Shown: positions 191-17,180 of the stretch, one piece after another | How the letters are laid out: every line of letters begins with the position of its first letter | Numbering within the stretch: the first letter of the stretch is position 1 | Assembly: GCA_041478555.1 (NCBI GenBank) | Contig: JBGOWI010000009.1 | Span: 3,875 to 67,874, forward strand | Direction of reading: 5' to 3' | From: Phycisphaerae bacterium | GTDB taxonomy: Bacteria; Planctomycetota; Phycisphaerae; Sedimentisphaerales; UBA12454 | Length of the DNA stretch: 64,000 nucleotides | Notes under the pieces: model-generated | What the model was told of the DNA's origin: nothing | The model's input: only the letters and a program-made list of their open reading frames with translations | Databases searched by the model: none | Position numbers and translations under genes: made by a program

Positions 191-348
191 TTTTTACGCC
201 TTTCCTGTACGTTGTCCTGTTCGTATATCAATTGGAAAAGACGGATAACGCAGGCAGGGCAGCACAAGCTACAAAAGAGATGACAAGAGCTGAAATCCTT
301 TTCAGAAAATTTGGGTTTTGAATCGCCTTATTTAACAGGTTTTTTGCC

Positions 349-439
349 CGTTGCGACGCGGTCGCACTTGTCGTGGCGCTCGTCGCGGCGGAGGCCGCTG
401 CCGCAGCAGGAGAGCCCGCCGCAACCCGACCGCGGCGAA
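349..439. repeat. GC-rich repeat element (core CGTTGCGACGCGGTCGCAC ... ACCGCGGCGAA) inside a GC-rich island of about 311-500
   Basis: Both ends recur, reverse-complemented and joined together, at 9657-9684 (TTCGCCGCGGT + GCGACCGCGTCGCAACG). It contains the palindrome GCGAC-CGC-GTCGC. The composition is much more GC-rich than the flanking AT-rich intergenic DNA. Confidence 0.6.
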
Positions 440-3005: not shown

Positions 3006-4229
3006 ATGGTAAAGCAATTTATCGCCGGCAGTTGCTATTCGTATATTCTAATCTCAAATAATGAAGCGCTAATTATCGACCCCCATATAAGTTTAGTAGA
3101 AGAATATAGAAAATATCTAACGAAAAATAAATTTACAGCAAAGTTCATAGTCGATACACATACGCATGCCGACCATTTTTCCGCTGCTGCGGTGTTAAAG
3201 AAACAGCTTAAAGCCCCGGTTCTGATGCACGAAAAAGCCATATCCGGCGTCGCAGACAAGCGGCTTAAAGATAATGACCGGATAGACGCAGGCACAAGCG
3301 GCATTAAGGTCATATATTCGCCGGGCCATACGGACGATGCTATAAGCTTATACGGAGAAGGCAGATTGTTTTCAGCCGATGTGCTCTTAATCGGCAGCGT
3401 CGGCAGAACAGATTTTCAAAATGGTTCGCCTGAATCGATGTTCGATACCCTGCAAAAATTAAAACGTCTGCCTGATGATACTATATTGTGCCCGGGACAC
3501 GATTATCACAGTCAGCGTTCATCAGCCATAGGCAGAGAGAAGAAAAATAATCCCTTCCTGAAGGAAGAAAATAAAGAAAATTTCGTGAAGAATATGCGGT
3601 CGAAAGTTATTCCCAAGCCCTTTAATATAGATAATATTATTCGGGTAAACCAGAAAGGCGAGGCAACATCGATAGAGATGATTTCGCCGTCCGATGCGGC
3701 ATCGGTTTTAAAACAAGACCAGCAAACGAAGATTCTGGATGTGCGCTCCGCTCTGGAGTTTAGTCAAATGCATATAGAAAATTCCATTAATATCCCCATA
3801 GATATGATTTCGGCAAAAATAGGCGAATTGAGTCGCTCGAAACAAAACTATCTGGTTCTCTGTCACAGCGGAACACGCGCCGCTATGGCGGCGGATATGC
3901 TGATGCAATCCGGGATTCATACGGCAAAGGTAATCCAGGGCGGCATCGCACGCTGGCAAAAAGAAAAACTGTCGGTTATTAAAGGCCAGGGCGGAATATC
4001 GCTGGAACGTCAGGTCCGGCTTGCGGCAGGGAGTCTTGTGCTTGCCGGAATAATAATGGGCTGGCTGCTGCACTGGACTTTTATATTTGTTTCGGTTTTT
4101 GTCGGCAGCGGTCTTGTTTTTTCAGGACTTTCCGATAGTTGCCTTATGGGAATGCTGCTGATGAAACTGCCGTATAATAAAAAACTTTATAAAAGCAAAT
4201 TGGGCGGAGGAACGTGCTCCATTAGTTAA
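3006..4229 (+). CDS. MBL-fold hydrolase (persulfide dioxygenase-like) fused to a rhodanese domain and a DUF2892-like membrane tail
   Basis: HTHADH metal motif and GHTDD. Rhodanese active-site loop LVLCHSGTRAAMAA. Hydrophobic C-terminal segment LAAGSLVLAGIIMGWLLHWTFIFVSVFVGSGLVFSGLSDSC (YgaP-like). ATG at 3006 is preceded by GGGAAAGAGG. The ORF track start (2988) is a TTG further upstream. Confidence 0.8.
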   Translation: MVKQFIAGSCYSYILISNNEALIIDPHISLVEEYRKYLTKNKFTAKFIVDTHTHADHFSAAAVLKKQLKAPVLMHEKAISGVADKRLKDNDRIDAGTSGIKVIYSPGHTDDAISLYGEGRLFSADVLLIGSVGRTDFQNGSPESMFDTLQKLKRLPDDTILCPGHDYHSQRSSAIGREKKNNPFLKEENKENFVKNMRSKVIPKPFNIDNIIRVNQKGEATSIEMISPSDAASVLKQDQQTKILDVRSALEFSQMHIENSINIPIDMISAKIGELSRSKQNYLVLCHSGTRAAMAADMLMQSGIHTAKVIQGGIARWQKEKLSVIKGQGGISLERQVRLAAGSLVLAGIIMGWLLHWTFIFVSVFVGSGLVFSGLSDSCLMGMLLMKLPYNKKLYKSKLGGGTCSIS

Positions 4230-4252
4230 AAACCGTACTTCTCAATTTTCCC

Positions 4253-4301
4253 TGCCCCGTGAGATGTTTACCCCGTGGGATGTGAAACTATCTCATCGGG
4301 G
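4253..4301 (+). repeat. REP-like bulged hairpin, copy 1 (left arm duplicated)
   Basis: TGCCCCGTGAGATGtttaCCCCGTGGGATGtgaaactATCTCATCGGGG. Same family as 4344-4377 and, reverse-complemented, 10654-10690. Confidence 0.7.
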
Positions 4302-4343
4302 TTAATCCGTGTCTAAAAAAATCTCTGTGTTCTCGGTGAACCT

Positions 4344-4377
4344 TGCCCCGTGAGATGCCGCTGCTATCTCATCGGGG
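4344..4377 (+). repeat. REP-like bulged hairpin, copy 2
   Basis: TGCCCCGTGAGATGccgctgctATCTCATCGGGG. The stems CCCCG/CGGGG and TGAGAT/ATCTCA are separated by one conserved bulged T in the 3' arm. Confidence 0.7.
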
Positions 4378-4664
4378 TCTGTGGCCAAAAATATACTTTT
4401 TATATCCTCTGTGGCTTCAATCTTTTTCAAAATGCGCATAAAAAAACATGCGCGTTTTGGAAAAAATAAAAAATTTTTCTCCATATCTGACAAGCACTTA
4501 CAAGATCGGGGTGATAAATTTTTGCTCAAAATTCGTCAAAAACGCGCAAGTTTTTGGGTAATACGGCAGGACTATATGTCCTCCAGGATACAAAAAAAAG
4601 AACCGCGGATTTCACTGATTTCGCTGATTTCAATTTTATCAAATCCGTTTAATCCGTGTAATCG

Positions 4665-5405
4665 GTGGTTAAAATTGTGCCAAAGACTTATTTACATATC
4701 CCTGTTCCTGACTCTATTGTACGCCTCGGCGTTGCCATTGTGCTGCGCCACAGGAAAAAACACTACGGCTGCGCATTCAGGCGCATTAAACTTACAAAAG
4801 GCCGATATGCCATTGTTGACCCTGAAGATTATCAGAAATTATCACAAGATGATTGGCAGCTTTTTGAGACTGAAAATAAGAAGTGTTACGCTGCCAGAAT
4901 CGAGGGAATAAAAATCGAATATATGCATAGGCAGATTATGAACGCCCCTAAAGGCTCTATCGTTGACCATAGAGACCACGAAGGGCTTAATAACACCAGG
5001 GATAATTTGCGATTCGCGACGCGTTCTCAAAACAGCTGTAATAGAAAGCGATTAAATTATGGCAGCTCGAAATACAGGGGCGTCTGCCGGGGAAATGAAT
5101 GCAATAAATGGCGAGCATATATTAGTTTTAACGGGCAGCGAAAATATTTAGGTTATTTCGAAAATGAGGAGGATGCCGCAAAAGCGTATGACGAAGCAGC
5201 GAAAATATACCACGGCGAGTTTGCTGTCTTGAATTTTGAATCCACAGAGCCTGGAGCGACAGCGACAGGAGAATTTAAAAGCGATAGCGCAGGGAGCAAA
5301 CAAAACCTCGGAAGCAGAATCAAATTACGCCTACTTGACGGTGCAATTCTGTGTTGTATAATTTTACTCTTATGTATTTTTGCGGGAAAACAAGCGGAGA
5401 CTGAT
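4665..5405 (+). CDS. HNH endonuclease + AP2 DNA-binding domain ORF (no stop codon of its own; reads in frame into the ABC ATPase gene)
   Basis: KGRYAIVDPEDYQKLSQDDWQL..., then the HNH_3-like region YMHRQIMNAPKGSIVDHRDHEGLNNTRDNLRFATRSQN, then the AP2-like region SKYRGVCRGNECNKWRAYISFNGQRKYLGYFENEEDAAKAYDEAAKIYHGEFAVLNF. The ORF track shows one uninterrupted frame 4665..6125. The start codon is uncertain. Confidence 0.7.
5335..5362 (+). promoter_or_regulatory. Sigma70-like promoter candidate for the ABC operon, inside the tail of the HNH/AP2 reading frame
   Basis: TTGACG (5335-5340), 16 nt spacer, TATAAT (5357-5362), 44 nt upstream of ATG 5406. Confidence 0.4.
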
Positions 5406-6981: not shown

Positions 6982-7248
6982 GAATCCCGCACCTTCTAAA
7001 TATTCAATGTATCCCGCCTCAAAGCATTGGAGCGGGATGTATCACGTATATTTTTTGAAGAGTCGAAAGAGTAATAGCTTGTCGATTGGATATACCAAAG
7101 GTTTAAAAAAGATTGAACCCCGCACCTTTTGCACCGTACTAAAACCAAAAAAGAGTCGATTCAAAAGGCGCCTGACTCAAATGACTCTAATGCCGGATAA
7201 CACAGTACAAAAGGTGCGGGATGAACCGAAAGAAGGTGCGGGATGAAC
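6982..7248. mobile_element. Nested composite of CCCGCACC-family MITE-like elements filling the permease/GldG-like junction
   Basis: The outer copy (GAATCCCGCACCTTCT ... AGAAGGTGCGGGATGAAC) aligns with the 20476-20593 copy. The inner copy, 7119-7220 (102 bp), is bounded by CCCGCACCTTTT / AAAAGGTGCGGG. An extra hairpin, ATCCCGCCtcaaagcattggaGCGGGAT (about 7011-7038), is flanked by GTAT on both sides. Confidence 0.75.
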
Positions 7249-10831: not shown

Positions 10832-11233
10832 TTATGGATGCGGGGGAGCCTGGGCCAAGATAAAAGGCAAAGAGGCTTTCTGCTGGCCGTCAATTGCCAA
10901 ATCAATCCTGTATTTGCCGTAGTTTTGCAACTTGAGTCCCTGAAGATTAGCGACGACATTAACGACAGTTGAATCGGATTTGGCCGGGGCCCTTACCGAA
11001 ATTGTTCCCTCTAATTTAGGAAAAACTTCTGCACCATCTTCATCAATGACGCAAATTCTGAACGGGTGCTGACCTTCTTCAATTCTGGAGAACCTTATCC
11101 TGAGTGCAACGGCGCAGGCCGGATGCGTAGTAGGAACCTGCCTGGCAAGAATAGTGTCGAAAGCACCCAAAACATTTAATTTGCCGTTCTGGTCGGTCGC
11201 AGCATCGCATAATAAAAAAGCTTCAATATCCAT
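10832..11233 (-). CDS. Hypothetical protein (small beta-rich protein, no recognisable catalytic motif)
   Basis: 133-aa ORF with no competing ORF. It begins MDIEAFLLCDAATDQNGKLNVLGAFDTI. The composition is coding-like. Function is unknown. Confidence 0.6.
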   Translation of the reverse strand: MDIEAFLLCDAATDQNGKLNVLGAFDTILARQVPTTHPACAVALRIRFSRIEEGQHPFRICVIDEDGAEVFPKLEGTISVRAPAKSDSTVVNVVANLQGLKLQNYGKYRIDLAIDGQQKASLPFILAQAPPHP

Positions 11234-11260
11234 ATTCTTTCCTTTCTTGTTACTAAAATA

Positions 11261-11349
11261 TAGCCACTAAGGCGCAAAGGCACAAAGAATAAAAAGAATT
11301 CAGTATAAAAACCATAAAAATCCTGATATCTTGGTGCCCTCGTGGCTAA
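11261..11349. repeat. Inverted-repeat miniature element (TAGCCACtaaGGCGCAAAGGCACAAAG ... CTTGGTGCCCTCGTGGCTA)
   Basis: The left arm, TAGCCAC..GGC.C.AAG, and the reverse complement of the right arm (TAGCCACGAGGGCACCAAG) are similar. A solo arm, TAGCCACAAAGGCACAAAG, occurs at 18275-18293. Confidence 0.5.
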
Positions 11350-11367
11350 TGTGAGTTTTTCATTACG

Positions 11368-11943
11368 TTAGAGAGTTCTTGCCAATTCAGGATTATTTAA
11401 AGCTGTCGTCAGGTCGATATAGCGATAGGGGAAATTGAATTTTTCGCACAGTAACTTGAATTTTTCGACAGCTTCTTCGCTGAGTTTGTTTTGCAAATCT
11501 TTATCGGCTTTGCAGAAGAATATTCTGCAGCCTGCGAAACGATAATTTCTTACGCTGCATTTACCCCCACACCAATTTGCACCTCGATGAGGTGTTTTGA
11601 AAGCCAACCCAATTGGTTTTAAGTGTTCTTTTAAGCTTATCCGCCGCAATGTAAATTGGTGTGGGGGTGTACCATTTTCGAGATAAGGACAACAGGAGCC
11701 GGTCATTTTTCTTAATAGTTTAACATTTTCATAAAAGTATAACAGTTCTGGCGTTGTTGCAAAAAGTTTGTGGCCGAACGATTCAAAGCGGCAGCACTTT
11801 CCGCAGGCTGTACACTGATTGTTGAATGGTTCTATATTGGAGTCCAGCCAGTCGTATATTCGCTCAACTTCGCTGCATATCTGAAGGTTGTTTTGCATCA
11901 AGCCACCAGCGTTTTTGTTTTTTGATTTTCTGGATTTCATCAT
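11368..11943 (-). CDS. YkgJ-family Cys-cluster (zinc/iron-chelating, UPF0153) protein, copy 2, with in-frame repeat insertion
   Basis: CTACGKCCRFESFGHKLF (CxxCxxCC motif) and ...SCCPYLENG[insert]KCSVRNYRFAGCRIFFC. The start is uncertain (ATG 11943 or ATG 11898). Either start overlaps the upstream paralogue. Confidence 0.7.
   Translation of the reverse strand: MMKSRKSKNKNAGGLMQNNLQICSEVERIYDWLDSNIEPFNNQCTACGKCCRFESFGHKLFATTPELLYFYENVKLLRKMTGSCCPYLENGTPPHQFTLRRISLKEHLKPIGLAFKTPHRGANWCGGKCSVRNYRFAGCRIFFCKADKDLQNKLSEEAVEKFKLLCEKFNFPYRYIDLTTALNNPELARTL
11564..11667. mobile_element. CCCCACACCAATTT-family palindromic element inside YkgJ copy 2
   Basis: CCCCCACACCAATTTGCA ... TGTAAATTGGTGTGGGGG. 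It measures 102 bp between 4-C and 4-G runs and 104 bp with the 5-nt runs. The same TIRs occur at 15316-15417. Confidence 0.75.
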
Positions 11944-12445
11944 AAGTATAGAGCCTGCCTTTGTTTATACCGGGACATTTCATCGCAGCGGCATTCCAGT
12001 CATCCGGGTTGTTTAGATTGTTCGGCCAGAAAGGCCAGTTTCGGCACTGCATTGGACGAGCGTCATAAATCGCGCAGCCTTTAACCCCGCACCTATTGTT
12101 CTGTGTTTTAGCAAAATCAAAATCGCTTCGCTTGACATTTGTTGAATCGATTTTCTCTTGGTTTGGGTTTGGCACAATAGGTGCGGGATTTATATTCTTA
12201 AGAAAAACACAATCCTTAGAACAGGGATTTTCCCTTATCGAGAAGCTAAGCCTGAGTCTTTTAAGGAATTTTTTTCGCACATCGTTCGGGCTTTGGCTCA
12301 GATGCTTTGCAAGTATTTTGATTTCCTGTCTCGATATCCATATAACGCCCTCCTGCGGGCCGGAGCAGCAATTTCCGCACTGCTGGCAGGCAAAATGCAA
12401 ACCTCCAATGTACCAGGGCGTATTTGTTTTTTTGTCAACTACCAT
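11864..12445 (-). CDS. YkgJ-family Cys-cluster (UPF0153) protein, copy 1, with in-frame repeat insertion
   Basis: [24 protein letters not shown] (CxxCxxCC motif) and ...CVFLKNI[insert][20 protein letters not shown]. The start overlaps the ilvD stop by 7 nt. Confidence 0.75.
12086..12187. mobile_element. CCCGCACC-family palindromic element inside YkgJ copy 1
   Basis: CCCGCACCTATTG ... CAATAGGTGCGGG, 102 bp by hand count. It is translated (minus strand) as [34 protein letters not shown]. Confidence 0.75.
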
Positions 12446-14106
12446 TTCAATACTGCGCCTGTGTCTGCGCTGGTTGCCATTGAGGCATATTTTGCAAGGC
12501 AGCCTTTGGTAATCCTCGGCTGAGGCGGCACAAATTGTGCCTTCCTTTTCGCCAATTCATCGTCAGAGAGTCTGACACTGATTTTTTTGGCGGGGATATC
12601 GATTTCGATTATATCGCCGTTCTTGAGCAGACCAATCGGGCCGCCAACAGCAGCTTCGGGGCTTACGTGGCCGATGCATGCGCCGCGCGTTCCACCGCTG
12701 AACCTGCCGTCGGTTATCAGCGCGACCGATTCGCCGAGGCCTGCACCCATAATGAAACTGGTCGGCATAAGCATTTCCTGCATACCGGGACCGCCTTTGG
12801 GGCCTTCGTTTCTGATAACGACGACATCGCCAGCTTTTACCTTGCCGGCAAGGATGCCATCGCAGGCATCTTCCTGACTTTCAAAGATTACGGCAGGGCC
12901 GCTGTGCTTCATCATCTTCTCCGCGACGCCTGCGGTTTTGATTACGCAGGCGCTGGGAGCGAGATTGCCCCTGAGGATTGAAAGACCGCCGGTTTTGGAA
13001 TAAGCGTTTTCAATCGTATGTATGCAATCGGTATTTTTGATTTTTGCCCTTGCGATGTTTTTACCCAGCGTTTTTCCTGTGACAGTCGGGCAGTTGAGAT
13101 GGAGCAAACCTTTCATTCTGCTAATCTCCTTGAGGATTGCACTTATACCGCCGGCTTCGTCAACATCCTGAACGTGCCATTTACTCGAAGGCGAAACTTT
13201 GCAGATGTTGGGGCATTTTTCGCTGATTTTGTTTATTCTTTCAAGGTCGTATTTTATTTCTGCCTCGTTGGCGATTGCCAGGGCGTGCAGGACGGTGTTT
13301 GTCGAGCCGCCCATCGCCATATCGAGCATAAAGGCATTGTCAATCGATTCGGCGGTTATAATGTCGAGCGGTTTTAAATCCTTTTCAATAAGATTGATTA
13401 TCTGTTTGCCGGCGGCGGCATATAATTTGTTTCTTTTTGGGTTGATTGCCAGGATAGTGCCGTTGCCCGGCAGGGCTATTCCGATTGCCTCGCAGAGGCA
13501 GTTCATACTATTGGCTGTATACATTCCTGAGCAGCTTCCCTGCGAAGGACAGCTGGTGCATTCAAGCTCATAGAGTCTGGCCTCATCAATTTTGCCGACC
13601 TTGTAGGCTGCGACGCCTTCAAAAAGAGAGGACAGGTCAACGGTATTGCCCTTTGAGTCTTTGCCGGCTGCCATCGGGCCGCCTGAGACAAAAATTGTAG
13701 GTATATTGACCCGAACCGCAGCCATCAGCATCCCGGGTATTATTTTGTCGCAGTTGGGAATGCAGATGAGGCCGTCGAAGCAGTGGGCACGAACCATCGA
13801 TTCGACGGAGTCGGCGATTATCTCCCGCGAAGCGAGCGAATATTTCATTCCGGTATGCCCCATCGCGATGCCGTCACAAATTGCGATGGTGTTGAACTCA
13901 AACGGTATACCGCCGCCGGCACGAACGGCTTTTTTTACCTTCTCAGAGACCTTGTTCAGATGCATGTGACCCGGCACGATTTCACAAAAACTATTGGCTA
14001 TGCCGATGAACGGCTTGTTCAAATCCGCATTTTTGAGTCCGCAGGCCCGCAGTAATGCCCTGTGCGGAGTCCTTTGGACCCCCTTTTTGATAGTGTCGCT
14101 TCTCAT
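12439..14106 (-). CDS. ilvD: Dihydroxy-acid dehydratase
   Basis: 555 aa. The N-terminus [24 protein letters not shown], the [12 protein letters not shown] motif and full-length similarity to IlvD/Edd family signatures support the call. Confidence 0.95.
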
Positions 14107-14213
14107 ATATTTTCTCCTAAGTGGCTTTCAATTAAGAAATAAGGAATTATAAGCACAAGATTATAATAAATAAATCCTAAAAGCATAAAAAGCTGCAGAT
14201 GTCTATAAAAAAA

Positions 14214-14241
14214 TTGCTCATTAAGTTTTAGTTGTTATAAT
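14214..14241 (+). promoter_or_regulatory. Sigma70-like promoter candidate for the tandem lipoprotein genes
   Basis: TTGCTC (14214-14219), 16 nt spacer, TATAAT (14236-14241), about 55 nt upstream of ATG 14298. Confidence 0.35.
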
Positions 14242-14297
14242 CACGGTCTGTTTGTGACGGATTAAACATTGTAATTAAATGGTTTTAGGAGAAAATC

Positions 14298-15257
14298 ATG
14301 AAAGCGCAGAAGATGTTGTGGGTTGTATTTTTGGGAGTTATTTTGTCTGTTTTGGCGGGCTGTGTGCCGACCGCGGAGATGAAACTCAATCTGGCACCGC
14401 AGAGCGAAACGGTCTATAGGGTTGTTCTCGAAACCGGTAAGGATTACGCGTTTATTCAGCCATCAATCAATAAGACAAAGGAGCGTCATACAGTTGGGCG
14501 GGCAGAGCTGGTTTTTGCACAGAGGATTGAAAGCGTTGACCAGCAGGGCAATGCGACAGCAGATATTACGATAAAGGAACTTAAATATTTGTCCGAAGAC
14601 CCCCAAGGCAAGACGCTGGACTTCGACAGCACATTGGAGGGCAGTAAGTCCGACCCGCTTTTTGCTCTTATCGGTCAGAGCTATAAAATAAAGATAACGC
14701 CCAACGGCCGGGTTGAGGTTATTGACGCCCAAGCGGCACGCGAAGTTATAAAGGGAGAAAGTTCTGCCAAGAAATTCGCGGACAGATTTTTCAGTAATGA
14801 GGAAATCGAGAGATGCCATCAGGTTCTTGCCCTGATGGATACAAAAAAGACCCTTTGCAAGAAAGGCGATAAGTGGAGCACGGTTGCCGCCTCTCCTGGC
14901 GGTATGCTCACACCAAAATCGTTTGAAAAGATTTATACCCTGACGGATGTAAAGGAGCGGAAAGGTGAGAAGATTGCCATTGTAACTATGAACGCCGAGC
15001 CCAGCTCAAAACGTGCAGCCGATATGCCGGAAAAAGAGGCGGCGGCAAGCTTTTTTGCAAAAATGTTCGAGGAGAAGGACAATTACAGCGGTAAAATGGT
15101 TCTAAATCTGACTACCGGCGAAATTGACAGTTATCAGGAGCTTCTGAAGGCCGAATGGCTCGCCGCAGAATCGCCCCAAGAGCAGAAAAGCGATAAAGGC
15201 CCAGACCAGTTGACGATGGGCTTTTGGAGTCTTTACAGTATCGAAAAAGTTGAGTGA
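14298..15257 (+). CDS. Hypothetical lipoprotein (paralogue of the next gene)
   Basis: Signal peptide MKAQKMLWVVFLGVILSVLAGC with lipobox LAGC. It shares motifs with the next ORF, for example SYKIKITPNGRVEVID versus SFTLKITPTGKIIDYT. Confidence 0.75.
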   Translation: MKAQKMLWVVFLGVILSVLAGCVPTAEMKLNLAPQSETVYRVVLETGKDYAFIQPSINKTKERHTVGRAELVFAQRIESVDQQGNATADITIKELKYLSEDPQGKTLDFDSTLEGSKSDPLFALIGQSYKIKITPNGRVEVIDAQAAREVIKGESSAKKFADRFFSNEEIERCHQVLALMDTKKTLCKKGDKWSTVAASPGGMLTPKSFEKIYTLTDVKERKGEKIAIVTMNAEPSSKRAADMPEKEAAASFFAKMFEEKDNYSGKMVLNLTTGEIDSYQELLKAEWLAAESPQEQKSDKGPDQLTMGFWSLYSIEKVE

Positions 15258-15295
15258 TTAAATAATCAAGGGATTGATTTTAACGGCTAAATATT

Positions 15296-16399
15296 ATGAA
15301 AAACCGGATTTTTATCCCCACACCAATTTGCATTGACCAGGAGAATTTTAAATTCGCCAGCAAGGCTGTTTCTGCTCAGCCTTTATTTGCCCGACCACAG
15401 TACAAATTGGTGTGGGGATTTACGATTGCGTTTGTGCTTTTCTTTGTCGGCTGTCAGGGGCAGCAGAAGTCGGGTGGTTTTAAAGGCAATCTGCTTTTAA
15501 GCGTCGATTTTAAACCTGATGTGCCATTGAAGTATAATTTTGTCTGTGAGAGACAGATAGCCCTTGACCTTGACCCATCGCACAAATACTCGAAAGGAGA
15601 AAAAGGCAGAGGCGGCAGCCAGAATATGGCTGAAAAACTCGAGATGGAAATTGTCTATAAGCCTGTCGAGATTGACCCTTACGGCTATTCAACAATCGAG
15701 GCAACCTGCAATTCGGCCAAAGTTACGCGCACCGCGGTAAGCAGCAGAGGGCAGGCAAAAGGCGATGCGGTTGAGTCTGCTGTCGGCAAAAGCTTTACAC
15801 TCAAGATTACGCCGACAGGCAAAATCATCGATTATACATCTCTTGAAAGTCTGGTCAAGGAGCTCGGCAACAGGGCCTTTGCAGATTCAAGCAGAGGCAG
15901 AATCAAAGACTCCGATATGATTATGGATTTTCTTGCCACACAGTGGTATATCTGGGATTTAATATCGAGTATAAAAGAGCCATTGAAAGGTGTTAAGAAA
16001 GGCCAGAAATGGAGCTCGCAGCTTCTGGCGCCGATGCCTTTCGTCTCAAAGGTCGGCAGAGATGTGGAGTACGAATTTGCAGGTGTTATTGAAGAGGGCG
16101 GCGTTTCTCTTGCCGAGATAACAAGCAGTTATAAATTGAGTAAGTTGCTGCCGGCGGCGCCTCTTCCTTACAGCGGTTCGTTTCAGATGAGGGGCACATT
16201 CGGCTTTTTAAGAGGATATAAGGTGCTGAGCATCGAAGGCAGCGGACGAGAGCTTTATGATATAGAAAGAGGAATTATTAAAAGTGATATTCAGCAGTAT
16301 CAGGCCAAGGTCGGTGCCTCCATTTTCGGTCTCGGCAGCGATACAATTGAGCCGAATATAGAAATCAACCAGACTATAACAATGACTTTGGCTGAATAA
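15296..16399 (+). CDS. Hypothetical lipoprotein with a palindromic element inserted in the signal peptide region
   Basis: The frame is open from ATG 15296 (MKNRIFI...) through the 102-bp element to GFTIAFVLFFVGCQG (lipobox FVGC). It is a paralogue of 14298..15257. The true start is uncertain; internal TTG/GTG codons at 15407/15410 are possible. Confidence 0.7.
   Translation: MKNRIFIPTPICIDQENFKFASKAVSAQPLFARPQYKLVWGFTIAFVLFFVGCQGQQKSGGFKGNLLLSVDFKPDVPLKYNFVCERQIALDLDPSHKYSKGEKGRGGSQNMAEKLEMEIVYKPVEIDPYGYSTIEATCNSAKVTRTAVSSRGQAKGDAVESAVGKSFTLKITPTGKIIDYTSLESLVKELGNRAFADSSRGRIKDSDMIMDFLATQWYIWDLISSIKEPLKGVKKGQKWSSQLLAPMPFVSKVGRDVEYEFAGVIEEGGVSLAEITSSYKLSKLLPAAPLPYSGSFQMRGTFGFLRGYKVLSIEGSGRELYDIERGIIKSDIQQYQAKVGASIFGLGSDTIEPNIEINQTITMTLAE
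15316..15417. mobile_element. CCCCACACCAATTT-family palindromic element inside the lipoprotein signal-peptide coding region
   Basis: CCCCACACCAATTTGCATTG ... GTACAAATTGGTGTGGGG, exactly 102 bp by hand count. It has the same orientation relative to its host gene as the 11564-11667 copy. Confidence 0.75.
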
Positions 16400-16940: not shown

Positions 16941-17180
16941 AACAGTGAACAGTTTACAGTTTACAGAAAAATATGGAAGAGATGGATTTTAAATTTGATT
17001 TTGAGAAACTCAAGGTTTATCAGAAAGCGCTCGATTTTATCCACGAGATTTTTAAAATATATAAACGATTACCACGAGAGTATAAATATACCGTCGGCGG
17101 CAAAGAAATAACTAATATGTTTTTTGGATTGATAGAGTCGCTGGAATAATGCTGTAAACTGTACACTGTAAACAGTAAAC
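16941..17180. mobile_element. Inverted-repeat-flanked cassette carrying a truncated four-helix-bundle ORF
   Basis: The left flank is AACAGTGAACAGTTTACAGTTTACAG (16941-16966). The right flank is GCTGTAAACTGTACACTGTAAACAGTAAAC (17151-17180). The arms are reverse complements of each other (CAGTGAACAGTTTACAG versus CAGTGTACAGTTTACAG). Confidence 0.55.
16973..17149 (+). pseudogene. Truncated four-helix-bundle protein (23S rRNA intervening-sequence protein family) remnant, 58 codons
   Basis: Hand translation gives MEEMDFKFDFEKLKVYQKALDFIHEIFKIYKRLPREYKYTVGGKEITNMFFGLIESLE*. The N-terminal FEKLKVYQKAxDFxxEIxKIxKxxPxE pattern and the C-terminal xxMLxGLIxSL pattern match the family. The central ~60 residues of full-length members are missing. 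It falls below the ORF-track length cutoff. Confidence 0.55.

Follow-up and report, generated by a model that had tools for sequence, protein, structure and literature searches.

The DNA window considered here is a stretch of 64,000 nucleotides from a Phycisphaerae bacterium of the phylum Planctomycetota (contig JBGOWI010000009.1 of assembly GCA_041478555.1). At 15296-16399 it holds a gene for a putative lipoprotein, the host gene of this report, whose signal-peptide region is interrupted in frame by a palindromic element of 104 bp. [quoted passage not shown] In Pfam, the match of the host protein to PF19777 is weak and nothing beyond DUF6263 was found; NCBIfam has no family for this protein. 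The features at the locus are as follows (positions are those of the window).

15296-16399, forward strand: host gene, an open reading frame (ORF) for a putative, DUF6263-like lipoprotein of 367 residues; the element makes up codons 7-42.
15296-15314, forward strand: ancestral start and n-region MKNRIF, whose last bases are the left target-site copy; the empty sites L046, L047 and L048 retain this ATG and the sequence before it.
15311-15314, no strand: left target-site duplication TTTA, from reading of the sequence.
15314-15335, no strand: left terminal inverted repeat (TIR), repeat I1.
15315-15418, no strand: palindromic element (MITE), 104 bp, T-CCCC...GGGG-A, from inverted-repeat and fold analysis; identical in L045 and absent from L046, L047 and L048.
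15398-15419, no strand: right TIR, translated in the host frame as (Y)KLVWG, from the inverted-repeat scan and translation.
15404-15454, forward strand: rebuilt signal core, comprising K, LVWGFTIAFVLFF and the lipobox F-V-G-C; by translation, the cysteine codon (15452-15454) is residue 53.
15407-15412, forward strand: in-frame TTG GTG in the right arm, by reading of the sequence the sole candidate internal starts.
15419-15422, no strand: right target-site duplication TTTA, from reading of the sequence.
14298-15257, forward strand: upstream paralogue (DUF6263, from the ORF list and Pfam), MKAQKMLWVVFLGVILSVLAGC, without the element.

A preliminary description of this DNA had reported a 102-bp palindrome at 15316-15417, in frame inside a lipoprotein signal peptide, and this observation was borne out. 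The sequence CCCCACACCAATTTG at 15316-15330 has a perfect match on the opposite strand at 15403-15417 (15/15); four 15-mer matches were found in the window where 0.15 are expected, none of 100 dinucleotide-preserving shuffles gave four, and the ORF translates as described. The reported interval is the core of the element. The bases just outside this CCCC/GGGG core are also complementary (T...A), and the inverted repeat reaches 22 nt at 91% (15314-15335 / 15398-15419). Deletion of the 102 bp (15316-15417) gives MKNRIFIFTIAFVLFFVGCQG, which is the predicted peptide, but the inserted total is larger: 104 bp of element and a 4-bp duplication, or 108 bp, equal to 36 stop-free codons. The insertion point is the TTTA within ATT-TTT-ACG (Ile-Phe-Thr), at codons 5-7, and the reconstructed pre-insertion DNA, ATG AAA AAC CGG ATT TTT ACG ATT GCG..., reads MKNRIFTIAFVLFFVGCQG. 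At 104 bp and with no capacity to encode a transposase, the element has the size expected of a MITE. No promoter or terminator consensus was found in it. As RNA, it is predicted to fold with -45.7 kcal/mol (z = -6.1), leaving the AUG unpaired.

The first 55 residues of the host ORF are MKNRIFI-PTPICIDQENFKFASKAVSAQPLFARPQYKLVWG-FTIAFVLFFVGCQG. Without the 108 bp, the peptide becomes MKNRIFTIAFVLFFVG-C, in which a basic n-region, an uncharged h-region and a lipobox are all present and the cysteine is residue 17; the signals of orthologues end in ..FFVGC, ..LLAGC or ..LFAGC. With the element, the cysteine stands at residue 53, beyond the positional range of about 15-35 residues for lipoproteins, and K37, LVWGFTIAFVLFF and FVGC together form a complete local n/h/c unit. 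The positional rule of PROSITE PS51257 would reject a lipobox cysteine at residue 53. The 36 added residues contain K19, K23, R33 and K37 as against D14 and E16, and the final five, K-L-V-W-G, derive from the right end of the element.

Among 263 homologues found with the host protein, P0001 alone covers 100% of the query, with 98% identity and the same 34 residues. All of the others are about 330-358 residues long (333-358 for the closest element-free ones) and lack the insert residues. The N-termini of P0003, P0006 and P0007 are MKKLIFIVKLFAIASVFFFVGCQEQQ, MKKRIFIVQMAVIASVFLLAGCQEQQ and MKKRILFAIAVCFLFAGCEEQQ, respectively; the closest element-free orthologues, P0003 and P0006, start MKKLIFIV.. 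or MKKRIFIV.. and end in AGC or VGCQ. Because element-free orthologues start MKK[RL]IFI.., MKNRIF is ancestral, and the earlier proposal of an ancestral MKNRIF joined to a textbook lipoprotein signal is thus supported by the comparison; unrelated N-termini, which would have counted against it, were not seen in these orthologues.

The empty sites were found in conserved neighborhoods. The gene order at L046 is that of the window (DUF4340, DUF6941, CxxCxxCC, ilvD, DUF6263, host gene, HIT, HD), and L048, a shorter contig, has DUF6263, host gene, HIT and HD in common with it. Both have the same ATG and near-identical upstream sequence, and they read ATGAAAAAAC[TG]GATTTTTATAGTA... with no element. 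L047 is also an empty site, with gene neighborhood, ATG and upstream region as in the window. In the sister strain (L045/P0001), by contrast with these, the element is present with 0 differences over 104 bp; that assembly is independent, and the presence of the element in two independent assemblies excludes an artefact of assembly. By these sequence comparisons the insertion is recent, because distant orthologues in the same neighborhood lack the element and a 98%-identical sister strain has an identical one. The host ORF is intact in both element-bearing strains. Comparison of the window with the sister strain gives it a ratio of nonsynonymous to synonymous change (pN/pS) of 0.43, a value that does not look neutral but comes from 14 changes only; neighboring genes have values of 0.11-0.27.

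A stretch of the empty site in L048, ATAGTACAAATGGCTGTG (L048 1865-1885), was considered as a remnant of the element and was treated as chance or microhomology; what it shares with the right subterminal sequence CAGTACAAATTGGTGTG of the element (window 15396-15414) is mostly the usual subterminal motif of the family. A collapsed form of the element, of about 30 bp, occurs in the orthologues P0002, P0004 and P0005 of the host lipoprotein (L044, about 300-350, reverse strand). It consists of TAAA-CCCCCACATCAAT-AC-ATTGGTGTGAGGGG-TAAA, is translated KPPHQYIGVRGK and lies right after the lipobox; it is an independent strike on the same gene family, with two arms remaining and still in frame. Further, the interval between HIT and HD differs among the neighborhoods. 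L046 (7615-8052) and L047 carry there a gene for a 23S_rRNA_IVP four-helix bundle of 122-145 residues, and the window (16973-17149) has only a 58-residue ORF, possibly a truncated remnant of that gene.

The element belongs to a dispersed family. With an exact-arm pattern of 13 nt + 59-89 nt + 13 nt, a set of one genome per species yielded 44 loci and a metagenome collection 82 further loci; altogether, 114 distinct copies with identical termini were found outside the window, in public metagenome-assembled genomes (MAGs) and metagenomes. The MAGs are labeled as Phycisphaerae/Planctomycetota, Omnitrophota, Patescibacteria (Zambryski-, Moran-, Staskawicz- and Saccharibacteria) and Bdellovibrionales, and mis-binning is an unlikely cause of this spread because several copies lie on contigs of 100-400 kb. 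Copies are 87-119 bp long, with modes at 104-105, and their interiors mostly cannot be aligned with each other. Their ends are sharply defined. At the 92 ends of the first 46 copies, a C beyond the searched pattern is invariant (92/92), the next base outward is C in 73 of 92, and the flanking consensus is T-W-W-A, mostly TAAA or TTTA, adjoining (C)C-CCCACACCAATTT. The flanking 4-mers form an exact direct repeat in 33 of the 114 copies; in 5 they match solely as an inverted repeat. Among the direct pairs are the non-consensus CCAG/CCAG, CTGG/CTGG and CGAG/CGAG, and the variant copies have TGAA/TGAA and TTTA/TTTA.

In Omnitrophota, eleven copies (L003, L014, L015, L019, L022, L027, L029, L033, L035, L037 and L038) are set within a palindrome that extends beyond the element, ..CGAATT[TG]AA-element-T[TC]AAATTCG... 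This reflects either a longer TIR in this subfamily or a preferred target that forms a palindromic repeat of its own. Viral contigs gave 0 family matches, and plasmids gave nothing but one chance match of 32 nt. An Rfam scan of 11000-16000 with permissive E-values returned nothing relevant, and three insert peptides matched nothing in Pfam. A full-text literature search with the arm sequence gave only chance hits to primers, and no paper on such elements in Planctomycetes, the Candidate Phyla Radiation (CPR) or Omnitrophota was found. Arms lying 0.25-6 kb apart were examined as candidate autonomous elements and rejected; all are separate MITEs flanking ordinary genes, such as proC and ftsA in L098.

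Many copies within genes preserve the reading frame. Over the 114 copies, (length+4) mod 3 is 0 in 45, 1 in 37 and 2 in 32, which sets a mod-0 background of 39%. In 17 copies, an open frame runs on into long ORFs at one end or at both, and 16 of these copies are mod 0 and stop-free; the sole departure, L024 (mod 1), looks like a spurious ORF, and one of the 16 rows, L012, is a tRNA nest (see below) rather than an insertion in a protein. In-frame copies were found in UvrA (L115, insert residues 504-537) and in uracil-DNA glycosylase (UDG; L025), and at L092 the element lengthens 5-formyl-tetrahydrofolate cyclo-ligase (MTHFS) at its N-terminus. Because they are a multiple of 3 and stop-free, the intragenic copies are probably translated and not removed from RNA. 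The arms are stop-free in all six frames. Across 113 copies, the share of stop-free frames per element is 0.18-0.24 as against 0.13-0.15 in shuffled interiors; the mononucleotide-shuffle null is crude and the copies are related, and a general leaning of these sequences towards coding compatibility is suggestive only.

Two intergenic copies lie at the edges of genes. At L001 (4303-4404) an ATG of the element seems to serve as the start of the downstream glycosyltransferase, which reads through the right arm (..NKNWCGVKYSVVVPLYNE). At L032 (6746-6859) the element has landed on the stop codon of the gene upstream, and 7 codons of the element now belong to that ORF; the target TAAA includes a stop codon.

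These elements recur in the leaders of prepilin-type proteins. All copies were scanned for a right arm read as KLVWG and followed by [FILMVY]T[LIVM]xE. Seven copies lie exactly before G/FTL.E; as L072 is orthologous to L124, they amount to 6 independent events. The plausible short leaders ahead of them are MKNSGF, MKTDRFRGF, MPSKIYSFKKGF, MTRNGQYDLPAF, MKTCKLKSAF and MEKHNLISQGGKAF. In all 7, 105 or 108 bp are added, there is no stop from a plausible upstream ATG, the element is read in the same PTPI..KLVWG frame as in the host gene, and G-FTL[VIL]E... follows. For the five that were run (L018, L031, L059, L072 and L113), the models TIGR02532 (IV_pilin_GFxxxE) and PF07963 (N_methyl) begin at the first residue after the element.

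The Gly/Phe-Thr position is the site of prepilin peptidase in class III signal peptides. Its occupation can be understood from the target preference, since TTTA, the favored target, occurs within GGN-TTT-ACN (Gly-Phe-Thr); once the element is in place, its right end ...TGG GGN and the duplicated TTT A rebuild Gly/Phe-Thr. The host-gene copy has the same phase as the prepilin copies (ATT TTT A/.../TGG GGA TTT ACG), but it stands in a lipoprotein signal. With the window gene counted, 7 of roughly 12 independent in-frame events are in leaders that are cleaved off, and such leaders are a tiny fraction of coding sequence. A protein-database search for a prepilin leader joined to the element gave no candidates, a result that is uninformative and probably reflects downstream start calls or contigs that are not indexed.

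These facts lead us to propose, with a probability of roughly 0.7, that the element belongs to the MITEs, non-autonomous DNA transposons of the cut-and-paste type, and is read through and tolerated as signal peptidase removes the insert. The assignment to MITEs is based on perfect TIRs, a 4-bp duplication, dispersed copies and presence or absence at orthologous sites. In outline, a MITE with termini (C)CCCCACACCAATTTG would insert at a 4-bp TWWA target and duplicate it. Translation would start at the ancestral ATG and cross the element, giving a signal peptide of 52 residues in a product that contains PTPICIDQENFK. The 36 added residues, net positive, would form an N-terminal cytoplasmic extension, and the K-LVWG of the right end would rebuild a basic n-region and the start of an h-region directly before FTIAFVLFFVGC. 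Signal peptidase II would then cut before Cys53, leaving the mature protein unchanged and the insertion near-neutral. The same logic of the cleaved leader would account for the accumulation of relatives in prepilin leaders. From the anatomy of the element, its target-site duplication, the empty sites, the multi-copy family and the in-frame bias, we infer read-through translation, continued export and near-neutrality. The preliminary description held that the element alters how the protein is targeted or expressed; the family pattern suggests instead that removal of the leader by cleavage makes the insertion tolerable. Leaders of comparable length have precedent: in the extended signal peptide region of autotransporters and in type IVb prepilin leaders, extensions of 25-40 residues are compatible with export and cleavage. 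Those natural long leaders are conserved, evolved sequences, unlike the extension in the host gene, which would be a recent transposon insertion.

Several points weigh against this proposal. Export with Cys53 falls outside the standard lipoprotein rules, and continued export is therefore no more than plausible. The host gene's pN/pS is not significantly different from 1, with too few substitutions to decide. A young insertion, known from two 98%-identical strains only, has left selection little time to purge a harmful allele. The perfect 17-22 bp RNA stem, which begins 19 nt past the AUG, could lower translation or draw RNase III. The term "transposon" is used here on the strength of TIRs, duplication and presence/absence polymorphism, without a transposase, and no arm pair 0.25-6 kb apart enclosing a transposase was seen in 0.9 Mb of loci. 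Finally, what is proposed for translation, N-terminus and localization is read from sequence.

The preliminary description allowed two outcomes, an n-region longer by 34 residues or a restart at TTG or GTG in the right arm. In the second, the protein would begin at TTG (15407) or GTG (15410) as M-V-W-G-FTIAFVLFFVGC, a short signal that lacks a basic n-region, and the 37 codons before it would go untranslated or serve as a decoy leader. The two codons are indeed in frame at a suitable place, the glycosyltransferase gene at L001 apparently begins at an ATG within the element, the MTHFS domain at L092 begins directly after one, and the lack of called proteins with a prepilin leader and an element is compatible with gene callers picking downstream starts. 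A displaced start, however, would not require that the 7 prepilin copies and the host copy be stop-free multiples of 3, an outcome with a chance of about (0.39 x 0.24) for each copy. Further, there is no Shine-Dalgarno-like motif upstream of TTG/GTG at 15407-15412, the ancestral ATG and upstream region are intact and conserved, and a signal without positive charge would be atypical. We regard a displaced start as improbable. The family evidence, in which no copy found in an N-terminal leader breaks the frame or brings in a stop relative to the upstream ATG, favors read-through from the old ATG and so the longer n-region, although the added residues number 36, not 34.

The window contains five copies of the superfamily in all, the host-gene element included, with several in-frame copies within 4 kb. 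The other four are these.

11564-11667, no strand: second copy, with the same termini and with flanks TTTA / TGTA; in frame in the CxxCxxCC-type ORF 11368-11943 (reverse strand), read PPHQF..NWCGG.
12084-12188, no strand: third in-frame copy, with variant termini CCCCGCACCTATTGT; in ORF 11864-12445 (reverse strand), read NPAPIV..NNRCGV.
7118-7221, no strand: intergenic relative, with termini CCCCGCACCTTTTG and duplication TGAA/TGAA, 22 bp upstream of the gene at 7243.
32435-32485, no strand: short intergenic relative of 51 bp, with perfect 13-nt arms ACCCCGCACCTTC and 25 nt between them.

Three of the window relatives have the variant termini CCCCGCACC[TA]TTTG/TATTGT by the inverted-repeat scan. 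The interior of the copy at 11564-11667 is unrelated to that of the host-gene element, and it is read in another frame, as PPHQFTLRRISLKEHLKPIGLAFKTPHRGANWCGG. The orthologues in L021 and L044 carry this insertion too, likewise in frame and free of stops; L110 is a likely further orthologue, judged from the flanks TTTA/TGTA and ORF lengths alone. The copy is thus kept in frame across genomes whose element interiors have diverged to 50-76%. L046 lacks it, with an alignment gap of exactly 36 residues. L046 also lacks the copy at 12084; it has the same subfamily elsewhere in the same gene (36 residues between KCPGI and NKGRLY), at a position that is cleanly empty in the window. L044 carries the 12084-type, the L046-site and the 11564-type copies, which makes three in-frame elements in one gene pair. 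Removal of the inserts improves the domain match in both genes: the PF03692 match, split in two and scoring 32.8 bits with the 12084 insert, becomes a single stretch of 42.8 bits without it, and deletion of the 11564 insert turns no hit into a weak one of 15.9 bits.

At the three CxxCxxCC sites, then, the window is occupied, empty and occupied; L044 is occupied at all three; and L046 is empty, occupied and empty. The clean empty sites suggest, so far as sequence can tell, either recurrent insertion or seamless excision. The two CxxCxxCC ORFs of the window (11368-12445, reverse strand; 191 and 193 residues) are in different frames and overlap by 80 nt, and their counterpart is one fused gene of 385 residues in L046 (1963-3120); the corresponding region of L044 is 4173-5376. 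The linker of the fused gene in L046, APTPVVGV, is possibly another remnant of an arm. An unrelated palindrome of 114 bp, at 4442-4555 of the window, has arms AAAAACATGCGCGTTTTGGA and TCAAAAACGCGCAAGTTTTT (20 nt at 90%, 74 nt apart) and may represent another small repeat family.

Another possibility is that the host-gene insertion is a recent deleterious mutation, mild or strong. In that case, the 52-residue leader would go unprocessed, the protein would be mislocalized or lost, the paralogue would buffer the loss, and the gene would be on its way to becoming a pseudogene. The extreme youth of the insertion, with 0 element differences between the only two strains that carry it, would fit such a course, as would the intact paralogue immediately upstream, a pN/pS that exceeds those of the neighbors and is not significantly below 1, and a cysteine position that breaks the standard rules. 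Set against this are the intact host ORF in both strains, the occurrence of relatives at equivalent leader positions in many independent genes, the retention in frame of the CxxCxxCC-gene copy despite its diverged interiors, and a right arm whose K-LVWG rebuilds the n/h boundary. On balance, we think it unlikely that the insertion is on a deleterious path.

The element might also act as RNA, with its 17-22 bp stem in the 5' coding region serving as a translational roadblock or as an RNase III site in the manner of the Correia elements of Neisseria; such an effect, which would lower expression of the gene, is compatible with each of the other explanations. The stem belongs to a strong fold that differs from random expectation (z = -6) and starts 19 nt past the AUG, but it has no terminator-like tail, and the frame bias of the family implies passage of ribosomes through stems of this kind in many genes. 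We consider an effect at the RNA level quite unlikely to be the principal consequence of the insertion.

In three copies (L012, L041 and L129), the interior is a complete tRNA gene. At the orthologous CPR loci L012 (6140-6330) and L041 (120-320), an arm-tRNA-Glu(ttc)-arm unit lies within the anticodon loop of a second copy of tRNA-Glu. The outer tRNA halves are 100% identical between the two loci, and the linkers and flanks differ; the inner tRNA-Glu has a non-canonical T-loop, TCCGACT, as compared with TTCGACT in the outer one. L129 (2300-2480, reverse strand) is a second, independent case, in which the arms enclose a complete tRNA-Thr(tgt) ending in CCA. There, the 3' half of a tRNA (variable loop, T-arm and acceptor) directly follows the right arm, starting inside the anticodon loop; a matching 5' half was not found at L129. 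None of the junctions of the tRNA nests at L012, L041 and L129 shows a target duplication.

The copies in anticodon loops raise the idea that the element is removed from RNA in the manner of an intron, so that frame would be irrelevant. The perfectly conserved outer halves around the arm-tRNA-arm units at L012 and L041 would be in keeping with it. However, nearly all intragenic copies are multiples of 3 and stop-free, which is the signature of translation, and the apparently interrupted genes at L001 and L032 are in each case two adjacent genes with the element between them. The outer tRNA junctions also differ (TTCA at L012 and TTTA at L041) and an anticodon loop cannot be restored from them; ARAGORN, run with introns permitted, detects no outer tRNA, and no ribozyme family of Rfam matches. 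The frame constraint, the adjacent genes at L001 and L032 and the negative ARAGORN result led us to reject RNA excision, which we judge to be extremely improbable.

Read-through of a MITE, our preferred explanation, places the element beside several known systems. The closest likeness is to the Rickettsia palindromic elements RPE-1 to RPE-10, short palindromic repeats of about 100-150 bp that occur between genes and in frame in unrelated genes while the ORF is kept (PMC10969869). Here, the in-frame hosts are a lipoprotein, CxxCxxCC proteins, prepilins, UvrA, UDG and MTHFS. There is no sequence relationship to the RPEs: NCBIfam, which presumably includes RPE domain models, gives no match, and neither do Pfam and Rfam. 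Unlike the RPEs, the present family is spread over free-living or episymbiotic Planctomycetota, Omnitrophota, Patescibacteria and Bdellovibrionales rather than one genus. It also differs in its clear 4-bp duplication, in sharply conserved termini around an unrelated interior, and in the strong preference of its surviving copies for cleavable N-terminal leaders.

The Correia elements (NEMIS) of Neisseria are bacterial MITEs with TIRs and short duplications that are co-transcribed and form long RNA hairpins. In-frame MITEs are also known from Coxiella (PMC5896051), where QMITE1/2 have the same features. Both resemble our family as MITEs of 100-400 bp that sometimes extend or interrupt ORFs in frame. 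Correia elements, however, have a TA duplication, 26-bp TIRs, integration host factor (IHF) sites and promoters, none of which was detected in the host-gene element, and the QMITEs are confined to one species. The repetitive extragenic palindromes (REPs) and REPINs mobilized by RAYT share with our family hairpins of about 100 bp, conserved arms, a more variable middle and many copies per genome. They differ in their GTAG or CGTC tags and in arms that are each a small palindrome, whereas the arms described here begin with CCCC, are not self-complementary and are flanked by a 4-bp duplication; REPs are extragenic and lack a target duplication (PMC3733652). A REPIN/RAYT identity was accordingly ruled out by end structure and target duplication.

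The features of the ends point in another direction. The piggyBac/IS1380 group uses a 4-bp TTAA-like target, comparable to T-W-W-A with occasional other 4-mers, and piggyBac variants use TAAA, TCAA and CTAA (PMC10813416). The termini likewise begin with CCC, and the clean empty orthologous sites are compatible with seamless excision. Unlike in that group, no transposase was found beside any copy in the 0.9 Mb of loci, and the likeness comes from end and target features only; kinship to piggyBac/IS1380 is thus a lead by analogy, not a classification. More tentatively still, and with considerable doubt on our part, the copies may be more than neutral insertions that passed a filter, and may form a single piggyBac/IS1380-like MITE lineage that crosses phyla and has ends built for coding sequence, with GGGG and TTTA recreating Gly-Phe-Thr. 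Such a lineage would harmlessly colonize, and perhaps seamlessly leave, the leaders of prepilins and other exported proteins, and would carry tRNA genes into anticodon loops (L012/L041 and L129). If so, it would be a transposon specialized for cleavable signal peptides.

By its sequence, the element is best described as an in-frame, RPE-like MITE of an apparently undescribed family. Three traits of this family are uncommon: identical termini in at least four phyla, recurrent occupation of cleavable leaders with regeneration of the site, and several in-frame copies within 4 kb. The family offers a second, independent and far more widely distributed case of Rickettsia-type selfish DNA inside proteins, and with an unusually clear rule of tolerance, namely leaders that are cut off and surface turns. 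Identical 15-bp termini in four phyla that share sediment and groundwater point to a broadly transferred transposase. There are consequences for annotation as well. Prepilin motifs that begin 44-51 residues in, and a lipobox cysteine at residue 53 as here, mean that gene callers and predictors of signal peptides or lipoproteins will mis-call starts and localization in genes that bear the insert. If the proposed affinity for cleavable leaders is real, these elements would also be a source of variation in leader length among pilin-like genes, which form very large families in Planctomycetota.

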